Positions 7,546 through 42,618 of a DNA stretch of 64,000 nt are shown here, piece after piece (the stretch's first letter is position 1; each line of letters opens with the position of its first letter). The notes under the pieces were generated by a model, which had not been told where the DNA came from, ran no database searches, and was given only the letters and a program-made list of their open reading frames with translations. The DNA is from Candidatus Levyibacteriota bacterium (GTDB lineage Bacteria; Patescibacteriota; Microgenomatia; Levybacterales; UBA12049): positions 136,125 through 200,124 of the forward strand of contig JACROF010000002.1 in assembly GCA_016214555.1 (NCBI GenBank), in the 5' to 3' direction. The translations under genes were made by a program, and so were the position numbers.

Positions 7546-7546
7546 C

Positions 7547-9805
7547 TTAGGGAGTGGGCGTTGAGGTTGGGCTTTCCGAGTTTTTATTCTTTAATTCCCC
7601 AGGCGGATTATAACGCTCCTCATCTTTATGAAACTCCGCAATCCATGCATCTATTCCTTCTTGCCATCTATTTCTCCCATCGGTTGAGACAGGATCACGT
7701 TCGGTAAAGACCCAGTAATCTTTTCCATCTTTATTTTGATAAATGGAAGAGCTAGAAGTGGGTTCTGTACCTTTGATAAAAAATTCAGATCTTGCTGGTT
7801 GACCGTCCCTTGGAAGACCACCGCCTAATGGATCAATTTGAAGAGCAATCACATTTTCAGGCTTTTTAAAATCCTCATCAGGTTTTCCTTTGAGGGCCAT
7901 AACCATAAGGTTATGCCATATTGGCGAAGCGCCTGTCGCACCTGATGCAATTGCCTGATTCATGGGGGTGTAATCATTATTTCCTACCCAAACACCCACA
8001 ACAAGTGATGGAGTGTAGCCAAAAGTCCAGTTGTCACGCTTTTCGTCTGTTGTTCCTGTCTTCGCAGCAACCGTACGACCTGGGATACGAAGATAAGAAT
8101 TTGTTCCAAATTCATCCGCTCGAGCGTTGTTGTCAAGAAGTATGTGGGAAATAATATATGCTACCTCTTCAGGTAGTACTCTTTTTCCTTCGCGAGGCTT
8201 ATACTCAAACAACTTATGACCCCTACTATCTGTAACTTTTAAAATAGCAACCGGATCCTGCCTCACGCCTCCATTGGCAAATACGCCATATGCTGTCACT
8301 TCATCAATCATATGTGTTTCGCGACCTCCCAAGACAAGCGACAAACCAACATTTTTGAGATTTTCATCAGTTGGCTCCCAGGAGGCAACTCCCATATCGT
8401 ACGCAAGCTGCATACTGTCTTTTATACCAACAAGAGCAAGCATTTTCACAGCGGGGATATTTAATGAATTTCCTAACGCAAAACGCATCTGGACAGGCCC
8501 TCTAAACTTCCCGTCATAATTGACAGGGTTGTAAGGCTCAGATGAACCGTCAGTAACAAATTCAGTCTTGGTGTCCATGAGCATTGTTGAGGCTGTATAT
8601 CCTTTTTCCAAAGCTTTCGCATAGATAATAGGCTTCATCGATGACCCAGGCTGTCTATCAGCTTGAGTTACTACATTAAAATTGCCATCAATATCTTCAC
8701 TAAAATAGTCTTTACTACCAACCATAGCCAAAATCTCACCTGTTTTTGGCTCTGAAATAAGAGCAGCACCGTTGCTTACTTTGTATTTTTTAAGACTATC
8801 AATTTCATCTTTCACAATTTCCTCTGCTTTTTCCTGCATTTTAATATCAAGTGTTGTTGTCACCTGAAGCCCACCGTTCTGAACCATTTGATCCCCAAAT
8901 TTATCACCAAGAAGCTGACGAACATACATCACAAAATGTGCAGCTTTAAGATTTGCTGCTCGCTGAGTAAATTGATAATTTTTAATCTCAGTTAATGCCT
9001 TTTCTGCTTGAGCTTTAGTGATGTATTTATCTGCAACCATTCTCTTGAGGACTGAATCTGTTCGATCTATATAATATTTATTGCCACTAAATGGCGTATA
9101 GAGTGAAGGGAGCTGGGGAAGTCCTGCTAAAAATGCAGACTCTGCAAGATTTAATTCTTTTGCCTTTTTACCAAAATATTGCTCTGCAGCAGCTTCAACT
9201 CCAATTGCTGTTCCGCCATAAGGAATATTGTTGAGATACATTTCCAAAATCTGATCCTTTGAAAATCTATTATCAACCTGGATTGAAAGCATCAATTCTT
9301 TAATCTTACGAGGAAGAGACTTTTCGGATGTTAGAAGGACATTTTTGACCAATTGTTGAGTAATGGTCGAGCCTCCTCCAGCTATACGAGCTGAGAGAAG
9401 GGAGCGAGCAAATGCACGAAAAATTCCAATAATTGAAAACCCATTATTTTTATAAAAATCTTTGTCTTCAATCGCAATAGTACCTTGTTTGACATATTTT
9501 GGAATTTCATTAATTTTGACGTATGTTCTATTTTCATCTTGATACACAGAATAAAGAAGCTCACCATTTCTATCGTAAATCCTTGTTGCATCTTTATATT
9601 TTGAAGTTACCAATTTTCCAGGCGTTGGAAGATCACGGCTATACCAAAGAAAAAGAAGGGGGACAATGACAACACCAGCAATAAAAGCATAAAGCATGAG
9701 ACGAGTAACTCTACTCCAAAAAGATGCATTTTTAAAAGAGAGAAAAGAAGGAATTCTTATTCCTTTATGAAGACGACTCCTGCGCCTTGAGTGAAAATCA
9801 GGCAT
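7547..9805 (-). CDS. class A penicillin-binding protein (transglycosylase/transpeptidase, PBP1A-like)
   Basis: N-terminal TM helix, GT51 motifs (EDKDFY, GGSTITQQLVKN) and transpeptidase SxxK (QPGSSMKP). Confidence 0.85.
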   Translation of the reverse strand: MPDFHSRRRSRLHKGIRIPSFLSFKNASFWSRVTRLMLYAFIAGVVIVPLLFLWYSRDLPTPGKLVTSKYKDATRIYDRNGELLYSVYQDENRTYVKINEIPKYVKQGTIAIEDKDFYKNNGFSIIGIFRAFARSLLSARIAGGGSTITQQLVKNVLLTSEKSLPRKIKELMLSIQVDNRFSKDQILEMYLNNIPYGGTAIGVEAAAEQYFGKKAKELNLAESAFLAGLPQLPSLYTPFSGNKYYIDRTDSVLKRMVADKYITKAQAEKALTEIKNYQFTQRAANLKAAHFVMYVRQLLGDKFGDQMVQNGGLQVTTTLDIKMQEKAEEIVKDEIDSLKKYKVSNGAALISEPKTGEILAMVGSKDYFSEDIDGNFNVVTQADRQPGSSMKPIIYAKALEKGYTASTMLMDTKTEFVTDGSSEPYNPVNYDGKFRGPVQMRFALGNSLNIPAVKMLALVGIKDSMQLAYDMGVASWEPTDENLKNVGLSLVLGGRETHMIDEVTAYGVFANGGVRQDPVAILKVTDSRGHKLFEYKPREGKRVLPEEVAYIISHILLDNNARADEFGTNSYLRIPGRTVAAKTGTTDEKRDNWTFGYTPSLVVGVWVGNNDYTPMNQAIASGATGASPIWHNLMVMALKGKPDEDFKKPENVIALQIDPLGGGLPRDGQPARSEFFIKGTEPTSSSSIYQNKDGKDYWVFTERDPVSTDGRNRWQEGIDAWIAEFHKDEERYNPPGELKNKNSESPTSTPTP

Positions 9806-9860
9806 GATAATTATTATAGCAAATACCTAAAAGAACACAAAAATATGCTATACTCGTGCT

Positions 9861-11063
9861 ATGGACGAGATACAAACACTACTCAACCGTGGAGTAGATA
9901 AAATCTACCCAAGCAAAGAAGAACTCGAAAAGTTATTGCGCTCTGGAAAAAAGTTAACCATCTATCAAGGCTTTGATCCAACGGGAGATAAGCTTCATAT
10001 AGGACATATGGTAGGCTTGATGAAATTAGCCGATTGGCAAAAACTAGGCCATCACGTCATTTTCCTTATAGGTGATTTTACTGGCATGATTGGTGATCCA
10101 TCAGGGAAAAGCTCTACGCGTAAAATGCTCTCACATGAAGAAGTAATTAGAAATGCAAAATCATATAAAGATCAGGCTGGGAAAATTTTGAATTTTGAAG
10201 GAGAAAATGCTGCCGAGGTTAAATATAATGGTGACTGGCTTCAAAAGATGAGCGCTATCGAATTTCTAAGAATTGCAGGTCTACTATCATATCAGCAAGT
10301 AGTAGAAAGGGATTTATTTCAAGAAAGAGCAAAAAACGGGCAGGATCTTTTCATGAATGAGTTTCTCTATCCTGTAATGCAAGCATATGATTCTGTAGCA
10401 ATGAATGTCGATGTGGAAGTAGGAGGCACAGATCAGATGTTTAATATGTTAATGGGGAGAAAACTTATGCGACACATGTTGCAAAAAGACAAATTTGTCA
10501 TGACTACTCCTATCCTCACAGACTCATCAGGCAATAAAATTGGTAAAACAGAAGGAAATGCTATTGCCTTAGATGATCACCCTGACGATCTCTATAGCAA
10601 AATTATGGCCTTACCAGATGATATTATCGTCAAAGGTTTTGAGTATCTAACAAGAATACCTTATCAAACAATTGATCTGATAAAGAACTCTCTACAAGGA
10701 GGAGATAACCCTATCAATCATAAAAAAAATCTTGCTCATGAGATAGTCAGGCAACTCTCCTCACAAGAAAAAGCTGACACAGCCCAGCAAAAATTTGAAT
10801 CTGTGATACAAAATAAACAAACTCCCACAGAAATTGAAGAGATCCCATTAACTATTTCTGTTTCGGAAAAAATTTCTGTTGCTGATGCTCTTGTTGCATT
10901 AGACCTTGTTGAAAGTAAATCAGAAGCAAAAAGACTTATCACTCAAGGAGGCGTAACTATCTATAATGAAGTTATCAGTGATCCCAACAAATTATTTGAG
11001 GGAAAAGATCAAGGAATTATCAAAATCGGTAAAAGAAAAATTGTCAAACTTCTTAAGCCCTAG
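9861..11063 (+). CDS. tyrS: tyrosyl-tRNA synthetase
   Basis: HIGH motif (KLHIGHMVG), KMSKS-like KIGKT, and a C-terminal S4-like domain. Confidence 0.85.
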   Translation: MDEIQTLLNRGVDKIYPSKEELEKLLRSGKKLTIYQGFDPTGDKLHIGHMVGLMKLADWQKLGHHVIFLIGDFTGMIGDPSGKSSTRKMLSHEEVIRNAKSYKDQAGKILNFEGENAAEVKYNGDWLQKMSAIEFLRIAGLLSYQQVVERDLFQERAKNGQDLFMNEFLYPVMQAYDSVAMNVDVEVGGTDQMFNMLMGRKLMRHMLQKDKFVMTTPILTDSSGNKIGKTEGNAIALDDHPDDLYSKIMALPDDIIVKGFEYLTRIPYQTIDLIKNSLQGGDNPINHKKNLAHEIVRQLSSQEKADTAQQKFESVIQNKQTPTEIEEIPLTISVSEKISVADALVALDLVESKSEAKRLITQGGVTIYNEVISDPNKLFEGKDQGIIKIGKRKIVKLLKP

Positions 11064-11185
11064 TATAATCTTTTTATGAATTTTATCCGCGACCATCAAA
11101 AAGCTTTTCGCATTATTATGGCAGTTGCACTTGGGGCTCTCATTCTCTCATCATTCTTACCATTTCTCGTCTATCTTTTTTAAGC

Positions 11186-13195
11186 ATGGCCCAACTACAC
11201 GACTTACTCTCAACGGGCAACCGTAGCCTTAAAATGTACGCTAAAAGGTTGCAAAAACTCGATCTTTATACCTTCCGCGATCTTTTATATCACATTCCTT
11301 CTCGTTATGAAGATTTCTCCCTTGTGTCTGAAATAGGAAAGGCCCAAGAAGGTGAGATCGTAACTATTAAAGGGCAAATACTTGAAGCAAAAAATGAATA
11401 CACAAGATCACGAAAAGCAATACAAAAAATGATCATCGCTGATCAAACAGGGTCAATTGCCCTTACGTGGTTTAATCAACCATACATCATTAAAAGTGTA
11501 GCGCTTAACGACTCCATCTCGGTCTCAGGAAAAGTAGAGCGCTTCAAAAACAACCTTACCATGATTTCTCCTGATTATGAGCTGGCAAGCAATAATCTTA
11601 TTCATACGGGACGAATTATTCCTATTTATCCCGAAACAGCAGGTGTTTCATCAAAATGGCTTCGAAGACAAATTGCACTTCTTCTTGAAGAACACCAAAA
11701 CATGACAGATCCTCTTCCAGAAACGATTAAAAATGAGTATGGACTTTTAGATCTTTCATTCTCGCTGAAAGAAATTCATTTTCCTTCCTCTTTTGATAGT
11801 GTTGAAAAAGCAAGGCACAGACTTGCATTTGATGAAGTTTTTTATATGCAGCTAGCAGGCATTGAAAGAAAGAAGCTATGGCATAGCAACAAAACTGCCC
11901 GAAAATTGACGATCTCTGAAAAAGATCTGAAAGCATTTGTTATCTCTTTACCTTTTACCCTTACTGACTCACAAAAACAAGCTGTCAACGATCTCACATC
12001 TGACCTAAGTAAAGAAAAACCAATGAATAGACTTCTTCAAGGAGACGTTGGAAGTGGGAAGACTGTCATTGCAGCAATTGGCGCATACATTACAGCAAAA
12101 AACGGGCTTCAAAGCGCTATTATGGCACCAACAGAAATATTGGCAAAGCAGCATTTCGCTACTCTAGATATATTGTTGAAACCTTTTGAAATAAAGGTTG
12201 GTATTGTAACAAGTAGCGAAAAAATGAAGAAAGAAGATTCCTATGATGTTCTTGTTGGTACTCATGCTTTAGTCTCAAAATCAGTTGTATTTAAGAAATT
12301 AGGATTTGTTGTTATTGACGAACAACAGCGCTTTGGAGTATCACAACGTTTTATTCTCAGGGAGAAAGGTGTCAATCCACATGTCTTTACCATGACAGCA
12401 ACGCCCATCCCAAGAACCATGATGCTAACACTGTACCGAGAACTTGATGCTTCATATCTCACCCATATGCCAAAAGGAAGAAAAACTATCAAAACGTGGC
12501 TCGTGTCAGAAGAAAAAAGGCAAAATGCTTACTCGTGGATAGAAAAACAAATTCAGACGACAAAAAGTCAGGTGTTTATCATCTGTCCATTTATCGAAAT
12601 ATCAGAGACAATGCAGACTGTCAAATCAGCAGTAAAAGAGTTTGAAACTCTACAAGAGATTTTCCCAAAAATGAAGATGGGACTTTTGCATGGAAAACTA
12701 AAAGCTAAAGAAAAAGATGAGGCTCTCAAAAATTTTCGTGATAAAAAATATCAGATCCTCGTTGCTACTCCAGTAGTCGAAGTAGGGATAGACATTCCAA
12801 ACGCTACTATCATTGTCATTGAAGGAAGTGAACGATTTGGACTCGCGCAACTTCATCAGCTCAGAGGAAGGGTGGGGAGGGGAGAAAAACAATCATACTG
12901 TCTTCTGTTTTCAGATGCGAAAAACCAGAAAGCCCTGTCAAGACTTAGAGCAATGGAAAATATGCAAAATGGAGCTGAGCTCGCAGAGTTTGATCTCACC
13001 CTCAGAGGACCAGGCGATATTTTTGGGACAAAACAATCAGGAGTACGAATACTCAAAATAGCTTCATTTTCAGATTTTGACCTCCTACAAAAAGCTAAAA
13101 ATGCAGCACAAAGCATCGAAAAAACACTAGATGATTTCCCAGAGCTCTCAAAAGAGGTAAAAAGTTTTGTTATAACCCCTTCAAGCCCTGATTAA
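11186..13195 (+). CDS. recG: ATP-dependent DNA helicase RecG
   Basis: Wedge/OB N-terminal region, Walker A GDVGSGKT, DEQQRFGV (DEQH-like) and helicase C motifs. Confidence 0.85.
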   Translation: MAQLHDLLSTGNRSLKMYAKRLQKLDLYTFRDLLYHIPSRYEDFSLVSEIGKAQEGEIVTIKGQILEAKNEYTRSRKAIQKMIIADQTGSIALTWFNQPYIIKSVALNDSISVSGKVERFKNNLTMISPDYELASNNLIHTGRIIPIYPETAGVSSKWLRRQIALLLEEHQNMTDPLPETIKNEYGLLDLSFSLKEIHFPSSFDSVEKARHRLAFDEVFYMQLAGIERKKLWHSNKTARKLTISEKDLKAFVISLPFTLTDSQKQAVNDLTSDLSKEKPMNRLLQGDVGSGKTVIAAIGAYITAKNGLQSAIMAPTEILAKQHFATLDILLKPFEIKVGIVTSSEKMKKEDSYDVLVGTHALVSKSVVFKKLGFVVIDEQQRFGVSQRFILREKGVNPHVFTMTATPIPRTMMLTLYRELDASYLTHMPKGRKTIKTWLVSEEKRQNAYSWIEKQIQTTKSQVFIICPFIEISETMQTVKSAVKEFETLQEIFPKMKMGLLHGKLKAKEKDEALKNFRDKKYQILVATPVVEVGIDIPNATIIVIEGSERFGLAQLHQLRGRVGRGEKQSYCLLFSDAKNQKALSRLRAMENMQNGAELAEFDLTLRGPGDIFGTKQSGVRILKIASFSDFDLLQKAKNAAQSIEKTLDDFPELSKEVKSFVITPSSPD

Positions 13196-13198
13196 AAA

Positions 13199-13227
13199 TT
13201 GACAGAGTTATTATTTACTCATACACT
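13199..13227 (+). promoter_or_regulatory. sigma70-like promoter TTGACA-N17-TACACT
   Basis: Consensus -35 with 17-nt spacing to a -10-like hexamer, immediately upstream of the GTG start at 13234. Confidence 0.3.
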
Positions 13228-13233
13228 AATATT

Positions 13234-14352
13234 GTGCCCGTAGAATATACTTTACAAACTCAACAGACACAAGTTCCCGTTCAAGAACACACGCTTCCAA
13301 CAAGATATCTTGTTCTAGTTGGTATTGTCATCGCTATCACTACTCTACTTCTTGGGATACTTCTGGGTGCGATCTTTTCAAAGCCCAAAAATGCACCAAA
13401 GATAACAAAATCTGCCCAGCCGTCACCAACTATCTCTCAAAAAGTAGTGGAAACAGTTACTCCAACGCCTATGCAAGAAACAATCTCTTTGGCTTTTCTT
13501 CCAGGAAAACAGTATTTTGATGATGCCTATATTGCTGTTGAGGAAAAATCTCCCCACAAGACACTACTGCTCTCTGTTGCAAGACTTGAGCAGCAGCAAA
13601 ATTTTACGCAATTTACTAAAGTTAGCTACTTTGATGGCAAAGAATGGAAAAGAATCACCCTCACAAACACAACTCAAGATGGTACAGTTGTCCCTAATTC
13701 TCTTCTTCGCTTGTGGAATGACATAGAAAATGCACAAGGTGATTTGAAAAAAATCATTGCAACCGTCCAGGTTCAAAAACAAATTGTTTCACTAGCCTCA
13801 CCAACCCTGTCTGGTGAAATTAGCATCCAGAGCCTTCCTGGTTCTACAAAATTCATATATCAAGGGGTTGGCACACTACAAATTGATAATCAAAGTTTTG
13901 ATGTAAAGGTTTTCCGAAGTAAAACATACTCGTTTAATGCTTCTGATCTTTCATTTTTAGGAACACCTGAATTGCTCACATCAGATTTTATGATTTCATG
14001 GGATCAAGAGGGAGCGTTTTATTATGGCTCTTCTCATAAAACTCAAAACTCTATCAATAAAATTCAAAATTCTCAATTAGGGGTTCTTGAAGATGCGATT
14101 CGTAAAGTCAGCAAGTCTCTACAAATATCTAGCTCAATGAGCCAAAGCAGTGACTCACAAAAACAATATCAAATAACGCTTCAGGATCCTATTAATACAC
14201 GCATTTCGTACCCAATGATCAACACTGTAGAAAAATCACCATCACAAGCTTATTCTTGGATCTTGGGTGTAGGAGATAGTCAAATAGTAAAAAGTGAGGG
14301 AAGAACAGTTGATGGATATGGAGTATTTGAATTTATTCAACAGCTGAAATAA
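13234..14352 (+). CDS. hypothetical membrane-anchored or secreted protein
   Basis: GTG start, N-terminal TM helix (YLVLVGIVIAITTLLLGILLGAIF). No recognised domain. Confidence 0.45.
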   Translation: MPVEYTLQTQQTQVPVQEHTLPTRYLVLVGIVIAITTLLLGILLGAIFSKPKNAPKITKSAQPSPTISQKVVETVTPTPMQETISLAFLPGKQYFDDAYIAVEEKSPHKTLLLSVARLEQQQNFTQFTKVSYFDGKEWKRITLTNTTQDGTVVPNSLLRLWNDIENAQGDLKKIIATVQVQKQIVSLASPTLSGEISIQSLPGSTKFIYQGVGTLQIDNQSFDVKVFRSKTYSFNASDLSFLGTPELLTSDFMISWDQEGAFYYGSSHKTQNSINKIQNSQLGVLEDAIRKVSKSLQISSSMSQSSDSQKQYQITLQDPINTRISYPMINTVEKSPSQAYSWILGVGDSQIVKSEGRTVDGYGVFEFIQQLK

Positions 14353-15108
14353 TCAGATATCGAGTTTGATCTTTAATCCAAAATGGTCTGACAAATCAAC
14401 ATCATTCACTAATGAGAACTCTGACGTAAATAGCTTGTTGGTATAGATAAAATCAACAGCAAGTCCTGGAGGAAAAAGGCTTGTTACCCTATGAAGACGT
14501 GGATTGAGAGTATTTGAAAGTTGCTCAGCATGATTAGTCGCAAACGTATTGAGGTCTTTAATAATCTGAGAGCTTTTCGTAACATTGAAATCTCCAGAAA
14601 GAACAAAAGGCTCCTCAAGCGTAGAGATGAAGCTGCTTAAAATTTTTCCTTGTTCTATTTTGTAAGGCTTGTCCTCAGGAGTCGGACCCCATGCTAAGTG
14701 AGTGTTAACAAACCAAACTTCTTTCTTAAGCTGAAACTGCAGCGCCAATGCCAATCGGGGAAAACGCATCATTACTTCTTGCATTGAAATTTCATGCCTG
14801 GTGAACTCAACGTAGGGGTTAAGCCAAATTATTTTTTTATTTTTGACTTGTAAACCATTTTTATACAGAGTTGCATTGCCGAAATAAGAAGTTTCCTCAT
14901 TTTTTATCCTCAAAGAAATCGCCAACTCTCCTTGATACCCAAGTTCTTTTTTGAGAATAGCAAAGGTATCATCGCTACCTCTTCTTCCAATTCCTCTTGA
15001 AACTTCTTGGAAATGAATAATGTCAAAAGACTCTTTCTTTACATAATCGATAATTTGTTCAAGGTTTCGCCCTGTTTGAATATTTAGATGAAAAAAGGAT
15101 AAATTCAC
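14353..15108 (-). CDS. endonuclease/exonuclease/phosphatase (EEP) family protein
   Basis: N-terminal LNIQTG...HFQEV and C-terminal SDHFGL motifs typical of the EEP fold. Confidence 0.6.
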   Translation of the reverse strand: MNLSFFHLNIQTGRNLEQIIDYVKKESFDIIHFQEVSRGIGRRGSDDTFAILKKELGYQGELAISLRIKNEETSYFGNATLYKNGLQVKNKKIIWLNPYVEFTRHEISMQEVMMRFPRLALALQFQLKKEVWFVNTHLAWGPTPEDKPYKIEQGKILSSFISTLEEPFVLSGDFNVTKSSQIIKDLNTFATNHAEQLSNTLNPRLHRVTSLFPPGLAVDFIYTNKLFTSEFSLVNDVDLSDHFGLKIKLDI

Positions 15109-15168
15109 CTTTCCATTGTAACACGTCTAGATGTTGCGATTTGATCGTAAATAAGATACAATACACAC

Positions 15169-15375
15169 ATGTCACAAGAACCAAAAAAGAGACACTCAAG
15201 ACAACGTCAAGGAAAAAGACGCGCAGCAATCTCACTTTCTATACCAAAAACGGTTAAGTGTGATAATTGTGGCAGCATGCATCTTCCTCACACAATTTGC
15301 TCAGCGTGTGGTTTTTATAAAAAAACACAATTTATCACAAAGAAAAACCCTACTAATAAGCCAGCAATAGCATAA
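15169..15375 (+). CDS. rpmF: 50S ribosomal protein L32
   Basis: Basic N-terminus plus a CDNCG...CSACG zinc-ribbon pair. Confidence 0.8.
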   Translation: MSQEPKKRHSRQRQGKRRAAISLSIPKTVKCDNCGSMHLPHTICSACGFYKKTQFITKKNPTNKPAIA

Positions 15376-15387
15376 TATCAAGAGTAC

Positions 15388-15756
15388 ATGAAGACCTCAC
15401 AAGACCCTCGACATATCAAAAGACAACACACCGTTCAAGAGTTATTTAAAATTCAATTCCACAATCAACCCATTTCCCCCAGAGCTGAAGAAGTTTTGAA
15501 AAATAAAGACGTCATTGATGCAAAAATCCAAGAAGCAGCACCTGAATTTCCCATAGATAAAATTAATCGTGTTGATCTATCAATCCTTCGTCTTGCAGTT
15601 TTTGAACTTCTCATCGAAAAAAAAGAGCCAGTAAATGTTATAATTGATGAAGCGGTTGAACTCGGCAAAGAATTTGGCGGGGAAGCTAGTCCAAGCTTTA
15701 TCAATGGTGCCCTTGGCAATATCATAAATCATGAAAGACCTTCCAAAGATCAATAA
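15388..15756 (+). CDS. nusB: transcription antitermination factor NusB
   Basis: ILRLAVFELL signature helix and the NusB length. Confidence 0.75.
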   Translation: MKTSQDPRHIKRQHTVQELFKIQFHNQPISPRAEEVLKNKDVIDAKIQEAAPEFPIDKINRVDLSILRLAVFELLIEKKEPVNVIIDEAVELGKEFGGEASPSFINGALGNIINHERPSKDQ

Positions 15757-16411
15757 CCAACATTTATTCGACCAAGCCTTTACTCACAGATCATATTTAA
15801 ATGAGTCTAAAAATGAGATTGAGTCAAATGAACGCCTCGAATTTCTAGGAGACAGTATTCTTTCTTTTATCGTTTCTGACCATCTCTATAAAAATTACAC
15901 TCACTTTGACGAAGGAATTTTAACAAATCTTCGCTCATTATTAGTAAACACAAAAAGCATCGCAAAAGCAGCAAAAGAGCTCAATTTTGGCCAATATCTC
16001 AAACTTTCTAAAGGAGAGGAAGACTCAAAAGGAAGAGAGAATGAATCGCTTCTTGCAAATTCATTTGAAGCTTTTTTGGGAGCTCTCTTTCTTGATCAAG
16101 GCATTGAAAAAGCAAGAGAATTTGTCGCAGATATGCTTTTCCCACAAATAGAAGAGATAGTTGAGAAAAAAGCATTTAAGGATCCTAAAAGTCTTTTACA
16201 AGAATTTGTTCAGGCAAGAAAACAAAATTCGCCAATGTATAAAGTGCTTCACGAGGAAGGACCACCTCACTCTAAAATTTTTACCATTGGTGCTTTTGTA
16301 AATCAGCTTCAAATAGGGGAGGGGACTGGAAAATCAAAACAAGATGCAGAAGAGCAAGCTGCTGAACAAGCACTGGCTTATCTTCAAAAAGAAGGCCTTA
16401 AAGAAGCGTAA
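15731..16411 (+). CDS. rnc: ribonuclease III
   Basis: ERLEFLGDSIL RNase III signature plus a C-terminal dsRBD. Confidence 0.9.
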   Translation: MKDLPKINNQHLFDQAFTHRSYLNESKNEIESNERLEFLGDSILSFIVSDHLYKNYTHFDEGILTNLRSLLVNTKSIAKAAKELNFGQYLKLSKGEEDSKGRENESLLANSFEAFLGALFLDQGIEKAREFVADMLFPQIEEIVEKKAFKDPKSLLQEFVQARKQNSPMYKVLHEEGPPHSKIFTIGAFVNQLQIGEGTGKSKQDAEEQAAEQALAYLQKEGLKEA

Positions 16412-16452
16412 TTTACTTGAGAATCCTTCATCTTTCTGATACAATACTTCCT

Positions 16453-16680
16453 ATGGCAGTTGTAATTAGACTAACAAGAACAGGCAAAAAAGGAGAACGA
16501 AAGTTCCGCATTGTCGTCAAGGAGAAAAGAAGTCGCCGAGATGGCGACTCTGTTGAGGTGCTCGGATGGTATGAAAAAACACCAGACAACAGCAGAAAAA
16601 AGATAAATCTTGACCGCTACAAGTATTGGATTTCTCAGGGAGCACTTCCTTCAAAAACCGTTTCGGAGATAGTAAAGTGA
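16453..16680 (+). CDS. rpsP: 30S ribosomal protein S16
   Basis: MAVVIRLTRTGKKGERKFRIVV. The internal ATG at 16453 is used. Confidence 0.85.
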   Translation: MAVVIRLTRTGKKGERKFRIVVKEKRSRRDGDSVEVLGWYEKTPDNSRKKINLDRYKYWISQGALPSKTVSEIVK

Positions 16681-16682
16681 CC

Positions 16683-16949
16683 ATGAAAGATACTCTTCAT
16701 TTTATTGTTAGTGCTATTGTTGACAATCAAGAAGCTGTAAGTATCGATGAACACGAAGAAGATGGTGTTGTTGTACTTACCATCCACGTTGATCCTGCAG
16801 ATATGGGAAAAATTATTGGAAAAGAAGGTAAAGTTATTCGAAGTATCCGAAATATTATGAAAGTTAAAGCTATGAAGCACAACATTCGAATCTCCGTCTC
16901 ACTTGCAGACAACGAAAAAAAAAAAAAATCCCAATACCAACCTCTCTCT
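16683..16949 (+). CDS. KH-domain RNA-binding protein (YlqC-like), fused in frame to trmD in this sequence
   Basis: GKIIGKEGKVIRSIR KH motif. No stop before the trmD ATG because of an A14 tract. An A13 tract would give a TGA overlapping the trmD ATG (ATGA). Confidence 0.6.
16915..16928. repeat. A14 homopolymer tract at the KH/trmD junction
   Basis: Counted directly from the sequence. Encodes KKKK in the current frame. Confidence 0.9.
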
Positions 16950-17645
16950 ATGAAAATAACTATCATCACCCTTTTTCCTGAGATGTTTTCTGGTGCCTTC
17001 TCTCACTCAATTGTTAAAAACGCACAAGAAAAAAACCTCATAATAATTTCATATGTAGATCTTCGTCAATTCGGACTGGGGCAACATCAAACAGTCGACG
17101 ACACACCTTATGGAGGAGGAATTGGTATGATTCTTCGCGTAGATGTTGTCAAAAAGGCTATTGATGCTGCAAGAGATCCACAATACACAAATGAAAGAGT
17201 TATTCTTTTGGGTGCATCAGGGAAAAAATACTCCCAGCGTATAGCTGAAAAGTATGTATCAACATACCAACATCTTATTTTCATTTGCGGGCATTATGAG
17301 GGATTTGATGAAAGAGTTAAAAAATATGTTGATGAAGAAATCTCACTTGGCGACTTTATCCTAACAGGGGGCGAGATTCCAACAATGGCAATAGTTGACT
17401 CTATTACAAGATTGATTCCAGGTGTATTTAAGGAAGGAGTCACAACTCATGAATCATTTACTCACAAAGATGATAAAGGTTATCTCCTTGAATATCCGCA
17501 ATACACTAAGCCTCAGGATTTTGAAGGAGATAAAGTCCCTGATGTTCTTCTTTCAGGAAATCACAAAAAAATTGAGAGCTGGAGAAATGCAATGGCACGA
17601 AAAAAAACAGACACACTCAGACCAGATCTTCACAATAAATCCTAA
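16950..17645 (+). CDS. trmD: tRNA (guanine37-N1)-methyltransferase
   Basis: MKITIITLFPEMF start and SPOUT-fold motifs. rpsP-KH-trmD is a conserved context. Confidence 0.85.
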   Translation: MKITIITLFPEMFSGAFSHSIVKNAQEKNLIIISYVDLRQFGLGQHQTVDDTPYGGGIGMILRVDVVKKAIDAARDPQYTNERVILLGASGKKYSQRIAEKYVSTYQHLIFICGHYEGFDERVKKYVDEEISLGDFILTGGEIPTMAIVDSITRLIPGVFKEGVTTHESFTHKDDKGYLLEYPQYTKPQDFEGDKVPDVLLSGNHKKIESWRNAMARKKTDTLRPDLHNKS

Positions 17646-18370
17646 TTTCCACTTTCTGATGCTACTTGTTGATCAAAGGCGACATCCTTGACAGTTATAT
17701 CCCACTTTTTAAGCATCTCAATTGTTTGGAGTTTGTCTTGATCAATAACTCGTAGCGGATCAGTATAAGTAATTTGTGTTTCTTTTGGAAGATATTTGTA
17801 AAAAAAGATCATACCTAAGTCACCACTATTGTTGCTATATGACACATTTACGATCTCAGCAAGTGGCAACACCTCATTTACCTTCTGCAAGAAAGTTTGA
17901 AATTGAGCAATTGTTCCTTTTATAGTAACTTTAACAGAGATTGCTGTCTCTGGTGAAAGATTTGCTGAGGTTGTTGATAAATTTCCAACCTGGAAAGTAT
18001 AGTCGTCAAGAGAAACACTAGATGAAATAGCAAGATAATTTATGGTGTTAATAATTGACGTATAGTCTTTGACATAGGGAAGAGCTTTTTTCGCAAGATC
18101 ATAATCAGTTGCAATAACTTGATCACTAAGTGAGTTAACCAAGGAAATATTTTTTTGGAGCGTATCTATCCTGTCATTGGTTGCCTTTAATTCATTTTGT
18201 ATTGAAAACCATCGATCAATCTGAGGCATAACAAACTTACCAACAACCACTATAACGACAACTGCAATAAGAACACTTAGGGCAAGAGAAAATTGAGGTG
18301 CATCTTTGTACTTGAAATAAAGAATCCGTATATCTTCAAGCGATCTAATATTGTTTAGTTCATTAAGCAT
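17642..18370 (-). CDS. type IV pilus assembly protein PilO-like
   Basis: N-terminal TM helix then a coiled-coil. Lies downstream of pilM-pilN. Confidence 0.5.
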   Translation of the reverse strand: MLNELNNIRSLEDIRILYFKYKDAPQFSLALSVLIAVVVIVVVGKFVMPQIDRWFSIQNELKATNDRIDTLQKNISLVNSLSDQVIATDYDLAKKALPYVKDYTSIINTINYLAISSSVSLDDYTFQVGNLSTTSANLSPETAISVKVTIKGTIAQFQTFLQKVNEVLPLAEIVNVSYSNNSGDLGMIFFYKYLPKETQITYTDPLRVIDQDKLQTIEMLKKWDITVKDVAFDQQVASESGN

Positions 18371-18371
18371 A

Positions 18372-18920
18372 TTAAAAATACAATGTTAACTTTACTTGAA
18401 AAGACTTAATTTGCTGGTCTTGATCCTTTACAGCTTCCAGCAAGTTGACGTATACACGCTGAAAGGGTGTTCCTTTTTCAACCAGCTTTGAAAGTGACAA
18501 AAAATACTCTTCTATAGATTCAAGTGATGGAGAACTCACCGTAATATTGACACTTTCCTTTTCAACAGTAAACTCTGTCAAATCAGTTCCTGCTGGCAAT
18601 ATGTCTCTTAGCGCTTGAAGATAATCTCCGTAATGGGATCTTTTTGAGATAATAGTCTTTACATCAGACAACCTAATAACAGCGAGTGTTACATTGACAA
18701 TCTTAGCATCTGATGTTTTCAACGTATTCTCTAATTCTTTCTCTTTAGCAGCTAAGGAAGGGAGAGGGGAGGAGATAACAAGGAGAAACAAAACCACCGA
18801 AGTAGCACCAACCAAAAAAAGGAGACCAACAGCACCCATCCTTACTACTCTTGCTCTTGATGCAGATGCATTAAGTATTTGCTGTTTTTTGCTATAAAGT
18901 AAATTGATTTCGTTATTCAT
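18372..18920 (-). CDS. pilN: type IV pilus assembly protein PilN
   Basis: MNNEINLL start (PilN INLLP motif) plus a TM helix. The ATG at 18920 overlaps the pilM stop (ATGAATAA). Confidence 0.65.
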   Translation of the reverse strand: MNNEINLLYSKKQQILNASASRARVVRMGAVGLLFLVGATSVVLFLLVISSPLPSLAAKEKELENTLKTSDAKIVNVTLAVIRLSDVKTIISKRSHYGDYLQALRDILPAGTDLTEFTVEKESVNITVSSPSLESIEEYFLSLSKLVEKGTPFQRVYVNLLEAVKDQDQQIKSFQVKLTLYF

Positions 18921-19941
18921 CAGTTCGCATCGCCAGTCCAAGTGCGACGGAAAATCGAGGACCTTGCTCTAATAATTCAGGAGAGATACCCGCAACTTGA
19001 TGAATTTTCCATGGATTTCCGATGATGGTCTCAAGCCCTGTATTGCGAGCAACAAAAAGATCAATCCCAGGTAAAAGCGAAGAACCACCCGTGAGAATAA
19101 CTTGCGAAAGAGGATTGTCATTTTTATTCTTGTCTGCGTAATAGGCGATTGCTTTTTTGATTTCAGAAAGAATACTTAACAAGATCGGCTGCAATGCCTG
19201 ACTAATTTTACCCCCTAAGTTTTGGTCATTGATTCCGTATGTCTTTTTGTATTCCTCAGCTTGCGTTGGTGTGAAACCAAAATTTGATGCTATCGCTCGA
19301 TCCATAGCCAATCCCCCAAGGGGGACAGAGTATGTAAAAACCACAATCCCATTTTGGACAATGGCAAGCGAAGTACTCAACGCTCCAATATTGACAACAA
19401 GGAGTACTGAAGCAGCATTAGAGGGTACAAGTGCTCTGACAACTGAGATAATCTCTGTCTCAATCGCAGTGATTGTTAGTCCTGTCATCTCAAAAATCTG
19501 TTGATATCTATGAACAAGTGTATTGGGAGCACCAACCAAGAGAACCTGCATTTTTGAACTAAGTTGATCAGAAATATTCCTTTTCACCACTTTATAATCA
19601 AGTGCCATAGTTTTTAGAGGAGCTGGAATATGCTGCTCAGCTTCCCAGTAAATCGCAGATGAAAGCTCTTTGTCTGAGAGTTCGGGCATTTCAATAACTT
19701 TAGTGAAAACTTGATTTTCAGGAAGAGCAACATTCACGTTTTTGATCGTTACTTTTGCATCGATCATCAATTTTTGGATGGCCTGTGCCATTGCCTCCTG
19801 ATCAAAAGGCGATTCTGAAAACATTCCTTTTGCAGGTGTCACGGTCATCATGCAAGATTTTAGCATCATCCCTGATCTCTGCTTCTGCAACCAAATGAGC
19901 TTCATTGATGTTGCTCCTATGTCAAGTCCAAAACTATTCAT
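18913..19941 (-). CDS. pilM: type IV pilus assembly protein PilM (actin-like ATPase fold)
   Basis: FGLDIGATSMKLIWL N-terminus. The start at 19941 directly follows the upstream stop (TAATATG). Confidence 0.75.
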   Translation of the reverse strand: MNSFGLDIGATSMKLIWLQKQRSGMMLKSCMMTVTPAKGMFSESPFDQEAMAQAIQKLMIDAKVTIKNVNVALPENQVFTKVIEMPELSDKELSSAIYWEAEQHIPAPLKTMALDYKVVKRNISDQLSSKMQVLLVGAPNTLVHRYQQIFEMTGLTITAIETEIISVVRALVPSNAASVLLVVNIGALSTSLAIVQNGIVVFTYSVPLGGLAMDRAIASNFGFTPTQAEEYKKTYGINDQNLGGKISQALQPILLSILSEIKKAIAYYADKNKNDNPLSQVILTGGSSLLPGIDLFVARNTGLETIIGNPWKIHQVAGISPELLEQGPRFSVALGLAMRTDE

Positions 19942-19942
19942 A

Positions 19943-20737
19943 TTAATGTGAAAAAATTGCTGATGGGAAAAATTCAACAGGAAGTCTTGGATAACCTTTT
20001 GTCACAATAATTTTTCGAACAGTCTCGCCTGATGTTCCAGTTGATGTAATTGACTCGCCTTGAGATGGCAATGCTACACTTCCATTTACAGCAATGATAC
20101 TTGATGCATAGATAGGGATAATTCTCATCAAAAGACCATTCGTAACAGAGATCGCATAGGTGTGTGGATAAGTTTTTCCATTTACTGAGCCTGATGAAAA
20201 ATTTGTTGTAAAATTATTTACTGCAGCCCTAGACGGACATGGGTCAAGGCTGTAGTGCGTTGATACTGGCGAAGACACAGCTCCAGAAAGAACAACTACC
20301 TCAAGCGCAGCCTGAGTATTTGATGATGAACCACTACATACTTCGTTATTTTGACCCCAGTAAATTGTCACTGTTCCTGTGTATGGGGAAGCATAGTTGG
20401 GATACGTTGAAAGCCAAACATCCGCTCCGTCATTTTTAGGCACTGCATTAAGTCCATTTATTGGCAAGTATGATCCTGAAATGGTACTTTTGGATGTTGT
20501 ATATGACGCATCGTTGGTAAGACTTCCAGTAACTGATGAGTTGGATGAATTAATAATTTTTTCAATACCTGCCTCCGCTGCAGAAAATGCTCTTTGCGAT
20601 GTTTCATCTTCTTTTGTGATACGAAGAGTGGTAATACTCCGTGAGACAACCGAAAGTCCCACAGTCAGTGTGACCACCATCACAAGAATAACAATGAGAA
20701 GAATTTGCCCTTTTTGGGGATTGGGAGGAAATTGCAT
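19943..20737 (-). CDS. PilX-like minor pilin / pilus assembly protein
   Basis: N-terminal QKGQILLIVILVMVVTLTVGLSV resembles the PilX_N hydrophobic segment. Lies upstream of pilMNO. Confidence 0.45.
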   Translation of the reverse strand: MQFPPNPQKGQILLIVILVMVVTLTVGLSVVSRSITTLRITKEDETSQRAFSAAEAGIEKIINSSNSSVTGSLTNDASYTTSKSTISGSYLPINGLNAVPKNDGADVWLSTYPNYASPYTGTVTIYWGQNNEVCSGSSSNTQAALEVVVLSGAVSSPVSTHYSLDPCPSRAAVNNFTTNFSSGSVNGKTYPHTYAISVTNGLLMRIIPIYASSIIAVNGSVALPSQGESITSTGTSGETVRKIIVTKGYPRLPVEFFPSAIFSH

Positions 20738-20786
20738 AGGCTCCTTCTATCGTAACAAGCAGGCAACAATTATGTCAACAAAACTC

Positions 20787-21320
20787 CTATCGAACATTTC
20801 TCATGGTTACGCTTGTTTGAAAAGTTAATGCTGAATTATTTTCTGAAAGTGAATTATTATCTTTCTTGTTAAGGGTTATTACTATAGTAAATGTTGGAAA
20901 ATCATTGGGAGTAAGCTGCTGACATGAAAAGGAACATGCTGTAACAACAACCTCATTTGGATCAAGTAGTACTGCAGAATTTGAAGATATGGTACCTGCA
21001 GTAGTATCACAAGCATAAGTGGTTTTTCTATTACTCCCATCCAAAACAGTAATTGATGAATTTACCACAGGCGTTGGGGTTGGAGCAGTATAACACGTTG
21101 AAGGAGTATCAAGAGCAGAAGCAAAACGGATTGTACGAGAGATCTGACTCATGACAAAATCTCCATTTTTCTGAATTGTGCCCATCGAATCTGATTTGCT
21201 AGCCCCGCGAAGAGTGGTAAATAAAATTCCAAACATCAGCGTTCCAACAACACCTGTTATTGCAATAACTGCCAAAAGCTCAACAAGGGTAAATCCCTTA
21301 ACTAATTTTTTTTTCTTCAT
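20787..21320 (-). CDS. type IV prepilin (N-terminal cleavage/methylation domain)
   Basis: MKKKKLVKG|FTLVELLAVIAI prepilin leader. SD GGAGGGAG lies upstream. An A9 tract lies in codons 3-5. Confidence 0.75.
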   Translation of the reverse strand: MKKKKLVKGFTLVELLAVIAITGVVGTLMFGILFTTLRGASKSDSMGTIQKNGDFVMSQISRTIRFASALDTPSTCYTAPTPTPVVNSSITVLDGSNRKTTYACDTTAGTISSNSAVLLDPNEVVVTACSFSCQQLTPNDFPTFTIVITLNKKDNNSLSENNSALTFQTSVTMRNVR

Positions 21321-21820
21321 GGAGCAGGTCTCCCTCCAAAATTTGAAAGACATGTTTCCAGTCGTGCTGAGTGGCAATAGACATTTGAACTATCTTTGCA
21401 AGAAGTATCGTTCCATGACACTGTAGAAACTACCTTTGAATAGGTTACACCTGACACTGGTGTCTGTGGCTGACAGTCTGAATAATTTTGCGTAACAGTA
21501 ACCTCTCTTACGTAGGTATTGTCTATATTAACTGGGCAAGAAGATGATTTAGGACCGCAAGTGGAACCACTCGTTGAAATAGCAGTGCAAGAGGAAGCAA
21601 CGCAGTAGCTACCACTAAGAGTTGAAAAGGTTCCCCAGTCATTATTCTTCATTTGCCTTGCAATCTCCAGCCCTTCTTGAGCAAAATCAACTGCTTTTCC
21701 CTGTTGAGAACTTTGTGTTGAGTTTTTTAGTGAATTGAGAATAATAACTGACATAGCAGCTAAGATAATTGCTCCAGCTCCTAATGCGACCATTACCTCA
21801 ACAATTGTTTGACCTTTCAT
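21317..21820 (-). CDS. pilin-like protein (minor pilin)
   Basis: MKGQTIVEVMVALGAGAIIL is a variant class III signal. C-terminus is Cys-containing. Confidence 0.5.
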   Translation of the reverse strand: MKGQTIVEVMVALGAGAIILAAMSVIILNSLKNSTQSSQQGKAVDFAQEGLEIARQMKNNDWGTFSTLSGSYCVASSCTAISTSGSTCGPKSSSCPVNIDNTYVREVTVTQNYSDCQPQTPVSGVTYSKVVSTVSWNDTSCKDSSNVYCHSARLETCLSNFGGRPAP

Positions 21821-21822
21821 AG

Positions 21823-22326
21823 CTAATTTATAGTCACTGTTCCCCCCGATCCAACAGTAATATCTTGTGTTGTGTTGTATCCGCTAATTCTTACAAAACC
21901 AGAACCAGTTACGCCATTTGAGAGTACTTGAAATAAAAATGATGGGGAGGTGCTGCTTGAAGAAAAGCTAATATCTGATGGCAAACTTTTTGTAGAAAGC
22001 ACAGTAGTATTCCCAGAGCAAACCATTGAGAGGCGGTATGTGTTCGCCGTTGAACAATTTGATGTTGAAAGCCCACATATATCAACTCGGTATCCAATAA
22101 GAGTTCCAGTACAACTTGACGGCTTACGTTGAGACTGTGTTCTAGACTTGGCATCCCGGAGAAGCGATGCAACATCTAGGCTGGCTTGCTTCAAAACAGA
22201 GGATTTATTGTATGAAACAAAAGAAACAATACTCACAGTTGATATGATACCAATTACTGACAAAACAATAAGAAGCTCAATGAGAGTAAAGCCTTTCTTA
22301 AAAGAGGCTAGTGATCGATACTTCAT
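21823..22326 (-). CDS. type IV prepilin
   Basis: MKYRSLASFKKG|FTLIELLIV. Confidence 0.75.
   Translation of the reverse strand: MKYRSLASFKKGFTLIELLIVLSVIGIISTVSIVSFVSYNKSSVLKQASLDVASLLRDAKSRTQSQRKPSSCTGTLIGYRVDICGLSTSNCSTANTYRLSMVCSGNTTVLSTKSLPSDISFSSSSTSPSFLFQVLSNGVTGSGFVRISGYNTTQDITVGSGGTVTIN
22264..22307. repeat. 44-nt direct repeat (pilin N-terminal coding segment), copy 1
   Basis: Identical to 22761..22804. Encodes SFKKGFTLIELLIV on the minus strand. Confidence 0.8.
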
Positions 22327-22841
22327 GGATTATTAACAACATAATATTTTCCTGAAGAACAAGTACCTCCAGAAGGGGATGGCGCTGAAGAAGTTGAGTA
22401 AGTATCCTTATCATTTGCATTTTCAAGGCATGTTGCGAGCGTATAAGTCAATCCACTGGCATCGCTTACATAATAATAATTTCCTGAGTTGTATCCTGTT
22501 GTTCCTGAAGGATCGCAAGGAACTTTACTCATGTACGTCACTGAGTTATATGTAAAAGCTTCAGAAGTCATACAAACTGTTCCCGAGTTGATACGATATG
22601 TTACGGTTCTCACAGGATATCTTGCATTGTCAGACCGAAAAAGCTCAAGAGCAGATTGAATCTGCCTGATATCAGATTTTCTTTGTGTATCTCTTGCGCG
22701 CTGCCTCACACCGACAAAATTCGCAGTAAGTAAGGTTGTTAATATGCCAATAATTGCAATAACAATAAGAAGCTCAATGAGAGTAAAGCCTTTCTTAAAA
22801 GAGGTAACGTTAGGGGTTAATATCCGGGCTTGAAACAGCAT
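22323..22841 (-). CDS. type IV prepilin
   Basis: ...TSFKKG|FTLIELLIVIAIIG. Start uncertain: ATG at 22841 chosen, longer ORF runs to 22880. The N-terminal 44 nt are identical to the neighbouring pilin gene. Confidence 0.65.
   Translation of the reverse strand: MLFQARILTPNVTSFKKGFTLIELLIVIAIIGILTTLLTANFVGVRQRARDTQRKSDIRQIQSALELFRSDNARYPVRTVTYRINSGTVCMTSEAFTYNSVTYMSKVPCDPSGTTGYNSGNYYYVSDASGLTYTLATCLENANDKDTYSTSSAPSPSGGTCSSGKYYVVNNP
22761..22804. repeat. 44-nt direct repeat, copy 2
   Basis: Identical to 22264..22307. Confidence 0.8.
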
Positions 22842-23295
22842 AATTACAGGTACCTCCACATGCTGTTGCGGAAATTCCAAACGTTGCTATCGTGGCGCAA
22901 GCTGAACCTCCGTTACATGCCTGTGGATCAACGGTTCCTCTTTCCAGACTAGCATAGACAACATAACTTTGTCCATCTGAGGAAACATAGTAAATATATT
23001 GCCTACTGCTGGTTGGATCCTTAGGCAGGACATTCATGTATGGCTGCCATGAAGTTCCCCAATCGATCAAGGCAGTTGTATAAATCTTTTGCCCTGAAGC
23101 CAATGGATATCTCCCATTGTCTTGATAGTAAGCCTCAAGACCTCTTTGAATTTGACTTAGATCTGACTTTCTTCTGCCATCATTTGCTTTAAGTACCTGC
23201 TGAGAAGGATTCACGACTGCTAAAATCGCTGTAGTAAAAATGCCAACAATTGCAACAACCAGGATAAGTTCTATGAGCGTAAAGCCTCTCTTCAT
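22810..23295 (-). CDS. type IV pilin (PilA-like candidate major pilin)
   Basis: MKRG|FTLIELILVVAIVGI has a short leader. Ends in a C-terminal Cys pair. Confidence 0.75.
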   Translation of the reverse strand: MKRGFTLIELILVVAIVGIFTTAILAVVNPSQQVLKANDGRRKSDLSQIQRGLEAYYQDNGRYPLASGQKIYTTALIDWGTSWQPYMNVLPKDPTSSRQYIYYVSSDGQSYVVYASLERGTVDPQACNGGSACATIATFGISATACGGTCNYAVSSPDINP

Positions 23296-23331
23296 ACTTT
23301 AATAGTAGAGTTAATTACCATGAATTTCAAT

Positions 23332-24048
23332 CTACCTCTGACATGCACCACCACATGTTTCAGTGCAATATGTACCTGTTCCTCCAGGAACGATGTTGCA
23401 GCTAGTTGGATTTCCTGTACAAGAATAATTTTTAACAGGGCAGCTCTCAGGAGTGGGTGTTGGAGTTGGTAGAGGCGTTACAGATGTAACAACGGTAGGC
23501 GTTGGCGTTACTGAGTTGATTGAACCATTTGACAGACTTAGTGATGAAAGATAAGTACAATCAACGTTTCCCAAAACGGTACACGCCCACGTACTATCAA
23601 AATCCACAGGAACACAGCTAGAAAGTGAGGAAAGGATACATGCGCTTGTTGACGGAGTAGTGCTTAGTTTTGAAAATAAAACTGACCAGTCGGGACATGT
23701 TGATCCTGAATGTTGATAAATATAACATGTTGTCGGATCAGATGAACACTGACTGTCCTGAGGAATTCTTCTCATGTAAGTGACGCTACTTTCAATCCAG
23801 GGTTGTCCAAAATCAAGAGATGCTGGGTAACATCCATTATCATTGTAGTAAAGGTCAAGGGCAATTTTAATTTGCGCAACATCCTCTTTCCTTTTAGCAT
23901 CATGGATTCTATCAAGTTGTTTTACAGGATTAATAAAAGTAAGACTAAGATAAATAAGAGTTGCAAGAATAGTGATAACCGTCAAAAGTTCAACGAGAGT
24001 AAAACCTAAAACTCGCTGACGGAATGTTTTGATATTAAAAACCGACAT
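23332..24048 (-). CDS. type IV prepilin with TP-rich linker and Cys-rich C-terminal domain
   Basis: ...RVLG|FTLVELLTVITIL. Contains TPTPTVVTSVTPLPTPTPTPE and multiple Cys. Start is either 24048 or 24078. Confidence 0.65.
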   Translation of the reverse strand: MSVFNIKTFRQRVLGFTLVELLTVITILATLIYLSLTFINPVKQLDRIHDAKRKEDVAQIKIALDLYYNDNGCYPASLDFGQPWIESSVTYMRRIPQDSQCSSDPTTCYIYQHSGSTCPDWSVLFSKLSTTPSTSACILSSLSSCVPVDFDSTWACTVLGNVDCTYLSSLSLSNGSINSVTPTPTVVTSVTPLPTPTPTPESCPVKNYSCTGNPTSCNIVPGGTGTYCTETCGGACQR

Positions 24049-24796
24049 ATTTTGAAATAAAGTAAGCAATATGCTCACCCCATACCATCATAATAAAAGT
24101 TCCAAAGACAAGAAAGGGCCCAAAGGGAACTGTTCCACCGTGCAGCTTTTTCTTCTTAAGAGCAACAAGGAGTAAGGAAATACATGCCCCGCTAAGAAAA
24201 GATAGGTAAAGACCAAAAATTATATAAGGAAAACCTAAAATAAATCCCATTAAAAACGCAAAAATAACATCTCCAAAGCCCATTCCTCTCTTTTTTGTAA
24301 CAAGATAAATGGCATAAAAAAATGCGGCCGCACCAGATCCAGAAAGAAAATGATTTAAAAGCAAAGATGGAGTTGCTAAAAGCATCACAAGCTCTGCTAG
24401 ACATGCAAGCAAAACAAACTGAACGGGAATAATCTCAAACTCTCTGTCTGAAAAGAAGATTACTAACAAGCAAGAAGCTATAATCGACAGGACTATCATG
24501 GGAAAAAGTGAGGTTACATATAAAGCAATGCTCAGAAAAACAAAAGCAGTAATCAACTCAGATATCGGATACCAAAGAGACAATTTTTTCTTGCAATGCT
24601 TACATTTCCCTCTAAGTAATACGAAGGAAATAACAGGAATAAGCTCGCTCCATGAAAGAACTCTTGAGCAAAAATCACATTTTGATCTTCCCATGACAAA
24701 GGATCTGCCAGTTGCAGCATGCTGAGCAATAACGAGAAAAAAGCTTCCAAAAAAGAGCCCAGTGATACCAAAAAAAATTGCAGGAAGTAATTCCAT
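24035..24796 (-). CDS. pilD: prepilin peptidase (A24 family)
   Basis: CDFC...CKHC zinc motif and polytopic membrane topology. Start set at the MELLPAIFFG ATG. Confidence 0.75.
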   Translation of the reverse strand: MELLPAIFFGITGLFFGSFFLVIAQHAATGRSFVMGRSKCDFCSRVLSWSELIPVISFVLLRGKCKHCKKKLSLWYPISELITAFVFLSIALYVTSLFPMIVLSIIASCLLVIFFSDREFEIIPVQFVLLACLAELVMLLATPSLLLNHFLSGSGAAAFFYAIYLVTKKRGMGFGDVIFAFLMGFILGFPYIIFGLYLSFLSGACISLLLVALKKKKLHGGTVPFGPFLVFGTFIMMVWGEHIAYFISKYVGF

Positions 24797-24831
24797 ACAC
24801 TCAGTATAGTAGATATTTTTGATAAACAATA

Positions 24832-28510: not shown

Positions 28511-28599
28511 ATTTGTTCTCTAAATCAATTATTGGCAGGAAAGAAAATGTTTGTCAAGTACTAAAAATAACAATTTTTGAAGCCAAAATAAAATTGCTA

Positions 28600-29802: not shown

Positions 29803-29804
29803 TC

Positions 29805-30872: not shown

Positions 30873-30873
30873 A

Positions 30874-32712: not shown

Positions 32713-32758
32713 TATTTTTATAGTAGTCAATAGCAATAGAGAGTGTCAAGGAAAATAA

Positions 32759-33451: not shown

Positions 33452-33551
33452 TTTGTAATTGTTTTTATTTTTTGTTATACTCTCCAAATCGTTTTCACAA
33501 CTGAGCAATCGTTTGTGGAACATTCGATCTTTAAAAGATAAGGAGAAGGCA

Positions 33552-40810: not shown

Positions 40811-42618
<1,808 letters not shown>

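Follow-up and report, generated by a model that had tools for sequence, protein, structure and literature searches.

A 14-adenine tract that joins khpA to trmD in a Candidatus Levybacteria MAG is probably a local consensus error

Introduction

Does a run of 14 consecutive A residues between two neighbouring genes of a Candidatus Levybacteria MAG fuse them into one, allow two products to be made from one site, or record a mistake in the consensus? The window analysed here, a 64,000-nucleotide stretch of one contig of this MAG, contains such a run where a small KH-domain gene, khpA, precedes trmD, which encodes tRNA (guanine37-N1)-methyltransferase. An earlier note made from the letters of the window had put forward a homopolymer sequencing error, a genuine KH-TrmD fusion and a slippage site with two products as possible explanations, with a 13-A tract as the state that would restore a canonical stop/start overlap. 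We compared the locus with an independent assembly, with its orthologues and with the remainder of the same contig.

Results

The run reported in the earlier note, A14 at 16915-16928, was present in the window, flanked by G (16914) and T (16929), and the KH reading frame did continue through it straight into TrmD. The resulting ORF extends from ATG 16683 to 17645 and encodes 320 aa, with khpA in frame with the trmD ATG at 16950; it reads ...SLADNEKKKKSQYQPLS directly into MKITIITLFPEMF, the start of trmD, and the linker between its KH and TrmD parts is NEKKKKSQYQPLS. A 339-aa ORF from TTG 16626 is merely a mechanical upstream extension of the same frame. The 320-aa product is identical to GenBank MBI5044474.1, a protein named TrmD from a 232,526-bp Candidatus Levybacteria MAG contig, and therefore the A14 tract belongs to the deposited record.

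The tract is a strong outlier among the homopolymers of the window (39.5% GC), which contains 39 A7 runs, 16 A8 runs, one T9 run and no runs of A9-A13, A14 being the sole homopolymer longer than 9. The expected number of A14 runs was ~0.07 when the decay of run lengths (~0.4 per added base) was extrapolated, and ~0.005 from base composition alone. The run-length distribution seems to end abruptly after 8, and a genome that avoids longer runs would make A14 more anomalous. The frame arithmetic of the earlier note was right: a tract of 13 A would give an 89-aa KhpA ending in ...KKKNPNTNLSL*, whose TGA stop would share an ATGA with the start codon of trmD, and A12 and A15 would give products of 98 and 99 aa, respectively. 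Meaningful products from both A14 (the fusion) and A13 (a separate KhpA) are arithmetically possible, and equally expected by chance because one of the three frames must enter trmD.

Both halves of the fused ORF matched profiles of known families. The KhpA part matched Pfam PF13083 (KH_KhpA-B) with 63.9 bits (cutoff 32.1; E = 1.3e-17), and its residues 2-73 aligned to positions 1-72 of the 73-position profile, a full-length match above the gathering score. The TrmD part scored 278.3 bits against NF000648 (cutoff 220) and 273.7 bits against TIGR00088 (cutoff 195), and position 1 of the TrmD profiles aligned to residue 90 of the fused ORF, which is the Met at 16950. Upstream, the rpsP stop TGA occupies 16678-16680, and the khpA ATG begins 2 nt later (Table 1).

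Table 1. Features of the rpsP-khpA-trmD locus and of other genes in the window that differ from the independent assembly
Feature	Position	Strand	Evidence or remark
rpsP (ribosomal protein S16), 75 aa	16453-16680	+	Pfam PF00886, E = 3.8e-17; also called in Logan and NCBI relatives
khpA, probable true form, 78 aa, ...SLADNA + TAA	16683-16919	+	PF13083 match; Logan contigs L001/L004; relatives
Differing block, 8 nt	16915-16922	+	window AAAAAAAA, Logan CTTAACAC; gapless comparison with L001 (6,696 bp) and L004 (15,344 bp)
A14 tract	16915-16928	+	probably the overwritten 8-nt block plus a genuine A6 (16923-16928)
khpA-trmD spacer of the independent assembly, 30 nt	16920-16949	+	CACAAAAAATCCCAATACCAACCTCTCTCT
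trmD (tRNA (guanine37-N1)-methyltransferase), 231 aa, own ATG	16950-17645	+	NCBIfam equivalogs; stand-alone gene in Logan
TMEM260-like glycosyltransferase gene	25995-27980	-	holds a 48-nt deletion; segment without obvious tandem repeat
NAPRTase gene	33459-34769		changes at 33700, 34015 and 34019
YebC/TACO1-family gene	54828-55556	-	holds the cluster 55151-55157

Beyond trmD, a large type IV pilus-like cluster lies on the minus strand (17642-32736), convergent to trmD, with PilM/FtsA-like and PilO-like proteins, several N_methyl prepilin-like proteins, a prepilin peptidase, T2SSF and two T2SSE ATPases. The usual trmD neighbours rimM and rplS are missing from the locus. Rfam and tRNA scans of the window revealed no RNA gene close to the A14 tract. 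The sole RNA gene found in the window by Rfam and ARAGORN was a tRNA-Leu(CAA) at 62387-62474 (+); a 533-aa ORF from TTG 62374 overlaps it, and the true start of that ORF must therefore be further downstream.

The best homologue of the fused ORF was a stand-alone TrmD of 231 aa, 100% identical, from the Logan assembly of sequencing run SRR12113407 (P0001). The corresponding contig, SRR12113407_1090386 (19,954 bp), has the same gene order as the window but a separate 78-aa KH gene, and it matches window positions 6950-22293 (15,344 bp) without gaps and with only six differences, at 16915, 16916, 16917, 16920, 16922 and 17156. The first five fall within 8 nt of the tract and all are changes to A in the window (C, T, T, C and C, respectively, in the Logan contig); the sixth is synonymous, the Logan contig having A and the window G. 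In place of the 14 A, the Logan contig has CTTAACACAAAAAA, a sequence of the same length, and the khpA and trmD ATG codons are 267 nt apart in both assemblies. Each variant is represented by a single record, one with A14 and one with the Logan sequence.

In codons, the Logan contig has GAC AAC GCT TAA CAC AAA AAA TCC where the window has GAC AAC GAA AAA AAA AAA AAA TCC. Every non-A base of the 8-nt block is A in the window, and the khpA stop is erased: the Ala codon at 16914-16916 (GCT in L001/L004) reads GAA, and the stop codon at 16917-16919 (TAA) reads AAA. Because the stop was erased without a change in length, khpA happens to be in frame with trmD. The Logan KhpA has 78 aa and ends in ...ADNA-TAA, with the TAA at the equivalent of 16917-16919 and the trmD ATG 30 nt after it, which contradicts the ATGA overlap raised in the earlier note as the true arrangement. 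No obvious Shine-Dalgarno motif was seen when the sequence of the 30-nt spacer was read. A stand-alone, single-domain KhpA of ~75-80 aa was thus absent from the window as deposited, which lacks the stop, and present in the independent assembly (78 aa) as well as in four other relatives (78-81 aa). A run of at least 9 A/T residues, the mark of a slippage site, was not reproduced in this independent sequence of the same organism (Logan SRR12113407).

The state of the locus in relatives agreed with that of the Logan assembly. In the next relative, GCA_964457465.1 (L002; 75% nucleotide identity, same gene order), KhpA ends in ...ENA-TAA at the aligned position. The KhpA proteins of L001, L002, L003, L109 and L110 have 78-81 aa, with their own stop 2-5 residues past SLAD/E, and the spacers after KhpA in L003, L109 and L110 are free of long runs. 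A comparison of tract length among orthologous loci, proposed in the earlier note, gave no support for a shared tract: no junction homopolymer longer than 6 was present in 12 loci with a KH gene directly upstream of trmD (the longest being 6) or in L002, L003, L109 and L110, and all of these loci have an ordinary stop.

Fused orthologues, with or without a homopolymer, were likewise not found. With the TrmD profile, 80 GTDB loci were retrieved; a KH gene lies upstream on the same strand in 52 of them, and none of these 52 contains a KH-TrmD fusion. None was present among the best 120 of 8,000 scored homologues, all of which cover 68-78% of the query and contain PF01746 only, or in the top 150 of a search over 1.84 billion cluster representatives, among which the only N-terminal TrmD fusions were RimM-TrmD (P0199) and HAD-TrmD (P0179). 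Pattern scans with the exact flanks and any tract length gave no matches in GTDB genomes and JGI metagenomes, collections outside of which the source MAG lies, and a TrmD search of metagenome contigs returned only relatives of at most 50% identity, which is uninformative for this species.

The comparison was extended to all Logan contigs of run SRR12113407 that match the window, which together cover 54,993 bp (6950-22293 and 22775-62423). Over this length, the differences amounted to 14 substitutions and two deletions in the window, and no homopolymer differed in length across the 55 kb. Transversions accounted for 12 of the 14 substitutions, and at 13 of the 14 sites the base of the window is A or T. 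Natural polymorphism between close strains is normally transition-rich and mostly synonymous, and the pattern observed here is unlike it. The chance that 5 of 14 substitutions in 54,993 bp would fall in one 8-bp window is ~1e-12.

A second cluster, of the same style as the A14 block, is located in the YebC/TACO1-family gene, where four substitutions to T (A on the coding strand) at 55151, 55153, 55154 and 55157 turn YQFEQKG into YKNKQKG. The lost Phe aligns with a Phe in all three aligned PDB homologues (1lfp, 1kon and 4f3q; Aquifex aq_1575, E. coli YebC and Coxiella CBU_1566). Both clusters, 16915-16922 and 55151-55157, adjoin and extend a run of the same base (the A6 at 16923-16928, and TTTTTGTT before 55151), which suggests that low-quality read or contig ends may have been kept at joins. 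The pair of changes at 34015 and 34019 (both T to A; I186N and one synonymous change in NAPRTase) comes after GAAGAAA. The remaining substitutions are 33700 (A to T; K81I in NAPRTase) and 28865 (C to A) in a T2SSF/PilC-like gene (28600-29802).

The larger of the two deletions, 136 nt at 41938/41939 (+ strand), takes out the part of GyrB that reads ...NPSDGKRIL...LPGKLAD and causes a frameshift, so that gyrB is split into ORFs of 418 aa (40811-42067) and 213 aa (41977-42618), both on the plus strand. The Logan GyrB is intact (647 aa). The segment missing from the window (L085, 8504-8637 region), which is conserved and precedes the Toprim domain, can be aligned with solved GyrB structures at every residue, LPGKLADC included; the deletion is almost certainly another assembly error. 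The smaller, an in-frame deletion of 48 nt (16 codons) at 26365/26366, affects the TMEM260-like glycosyltransferase gene, and the segment is present in Logan L086 (9586-9633). In all three cases in which conservation could be used to judge between the assemblies (the KhpA stop, the YebC Phe and GyrB), the Logan version was the functional one.

Discussion

On the comparative sequence evidence, we consider it highly probable that A14 arose as a local consensus error during assembly of the deposited Candidatus Levybacteria MAG. This reading is based on the disagreement with an independent assembly, whose version is the conserved and functional one, on the ancestral state in relatives and on several similar errors elsewhere in the contig. 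All the discrepancies would be read most economically as local consensus errors in the scaffold of the MAG, A14 among them. The suspicion of an error voiced in the earlier note is thereby supported, although not in the form proposed there: the tract was not miscounted, and five substitutions to A left its length unchanged. Neither the fusion nor the dual-product slippage site suggested alongside it gained support, no fused orthologue and no orthologue with a long tract having been found. One observation counts against an error: the synonymous difference at 17156 sets the two assemblies apart, and they may therefore represent different samples or strains.

If the consensus is indeed in error, the 8-nt block CTTAACAC directly 5' of a genuine A6 would have been replaced by AAAAAAAA in the MAG, erasing the khpA stop while keeping the length. 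One possible cause is that low-quality read ends or contig-end joins were retained during scaffolding. The true locus would then be an ordinary rpsP-khpA-trmD operon of separate genes, with a 78-aa KhpA, a 30-nt spacer and a trmD with its own ATG. Judging from the families involved, rpsP, khpA and trmD are probably co-transcribed, KhpA is likely to be a small, stand-alone KH RNA-binding protein, and TrmD would be translated from its own ATG after an A/C-rich spacer without an evident Shine-Dalgarno motif.

Two other origins of the altered block were weighed. A diversity-generating retroelement, with A-specific mutagenesis between a template and a variable repeat, was discarded because the window holds no second copy of the 34-nt tract region with up to 3 mismatches and the change is confined to 8 nt. 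An artefact of N-to-A conversion (2-bit encoding) was considered because the KH block is all A; a simple overwrite would not account for every case, since the YebC cluster retains a G inside.

The main alternative is that A14 is real in the strain of the MAG, where clustered mutations would have abolished the khpA stop codon and created a genuine KhpA-linker-TrmD fusion, with TrmD perhaps also made from the internal ATG. The tract and the 320-aa ORF are, after all, in the deposited record, the frame is kept exactly, the one normal-looking SNP leaves room for different strains, and N-terminal fusions of TrmD to other domains (RimM and HAD) occur among predicted proteins. However, five substitutions to A within 8 nt stand against a single other difference in 15.3 kb, and we know of no mutational process that produces such a cluster. 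The same contig also carries a frameshifted copy of the essential gene gyrB and a YebC without its conserved Phe, so that its consensus is untrustworthy at this scale, and a KH-TrmD protein was found nowhere else (best 120 homologues, 52 GTDB loci and top 150 representatives). We therefore regard a real fusion in this strain as unlikely. Still less likely, in our view, is a tract that is real in a sub-population, in which KhpA would be fused to the essential TrmD through a slippage-prone lysine/poly(A) linker and fused and separate proteins would be mixed.

Programmed or tolerated slippage, in which RNA polymerase or the ribosome would slip on A14 and yield the fusion as well as, after a -1 shift, a separate KhpA (with the ATGA overlap) and TrmD, appears very improbable. 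Runs of at least 9 A/T residues do cause transcriptional slippage, some bacteria use or tolerate poly(A) tracts (PMC5009743, PMC4256274 and PMC3017870), and after a -1 shift translation would stop at a TGA that overlaps the start codon of trmD. However, slippage needs a real tract, and this one is found neither in the independent assembly, which is otherwise nearly identical, nor in any relative examined, the longest junction homopolymer elsewhere (12 loci) being 6. Moreover, the ancestral gene pair has no need for recoding. Some sequencing platforms are prone to errors in homopolymer length, and a miscalled A13 would give a tidy ATGA overlap between khpA and trmD, but this is scarcely credible here, given that the independent assembly is equally long in total yet has no long tract, that its khpA ends in a TAA 30 nt before trmD, in agreement with the relative L002, and that no other homopolymer differs in length from the Logan contigs over 55 kb.

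Taken together, the A14 tract and the KH-TrmD fusion are almost certainly not real biological features. The biological value of the locus, as an ordinary rpsP-khpA-trmD operon, is small, and in GenBank MBI5044474.1, a 320-aa protein that carries the name TrmD, a consensus error has very probably merged two genes into a chimera; the broken gyrB and the corrupted YebC belong to the same contig. Such sites would mislead the mining of MAGs for gene fusions, recoding sites or pseudogenes, and short A/T-overwritten blocks beside existing A/T runs may be a recognizable signature that is worth screening for.

The locus resembles the conserved rpsP-khpA(ylqC)-(rimM)-trmD neighbourhood, in that rpsP, the KH gene and trmD lie in this order on one strand, with KhpA known as a ~75-80-aa single-KH protein (PMC11039985 and PMC11261784) and a KH gene found upstream in 52/80 GTDB loci. 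It differs in that this lineage, like other Patescibacteria, has no rimM between khpA and trmD, and in that trmD is followed by a convergent pilus gene cluster instead of rplS.

On paper, the locus is also similar to systems of poly(A) slippage or sliding (reviewed in PMC5009743), such as Citrobacter rodentium tssM (PMC4256274) and the poly(A) tracts of Blochmannia (PMC3017870), because A14 lies in a coding region where a -1 shift would switch between the fused and the separate product. However, the known tracts are in the real genome and usually common to related strains, whereas the A14 of the window is absent from a near-identical assembly and from relatives.

The closest counterpart is the local assembly error, a recognized problem of short-read metagenome assemblies, notably after IDBA-UD, in which stretches of consensus have no perfect read support (Chen et al. 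2020, Genome Res, PMC7111523). There, the defining criterion is the lack of a perfectly matching read, whereas the discrepancies described here come from a comparison of assemblies, and in the literature on such errors we found no description of an A/T-ward bias of erroneous blocks beside existing A/T runs. A groundwater project of the Banfield laboratory (He et al. 2021, PMC7906910), in which many Levybacteria MAGs of ~40% GC were obtained and MEGAHIT contigs were scaffolded with IDBA-UD, is a lead, and only a lead, as to the relevant source of this MAG or of SRR12113407. In other respects the likeness to the errors in PMC7111523 is close: a consensus stretch of the window conflicts with what an independent assembly shows for this population, a gene call is corrupted, and other substitution clusters and missing segments occur in the same scaffold.
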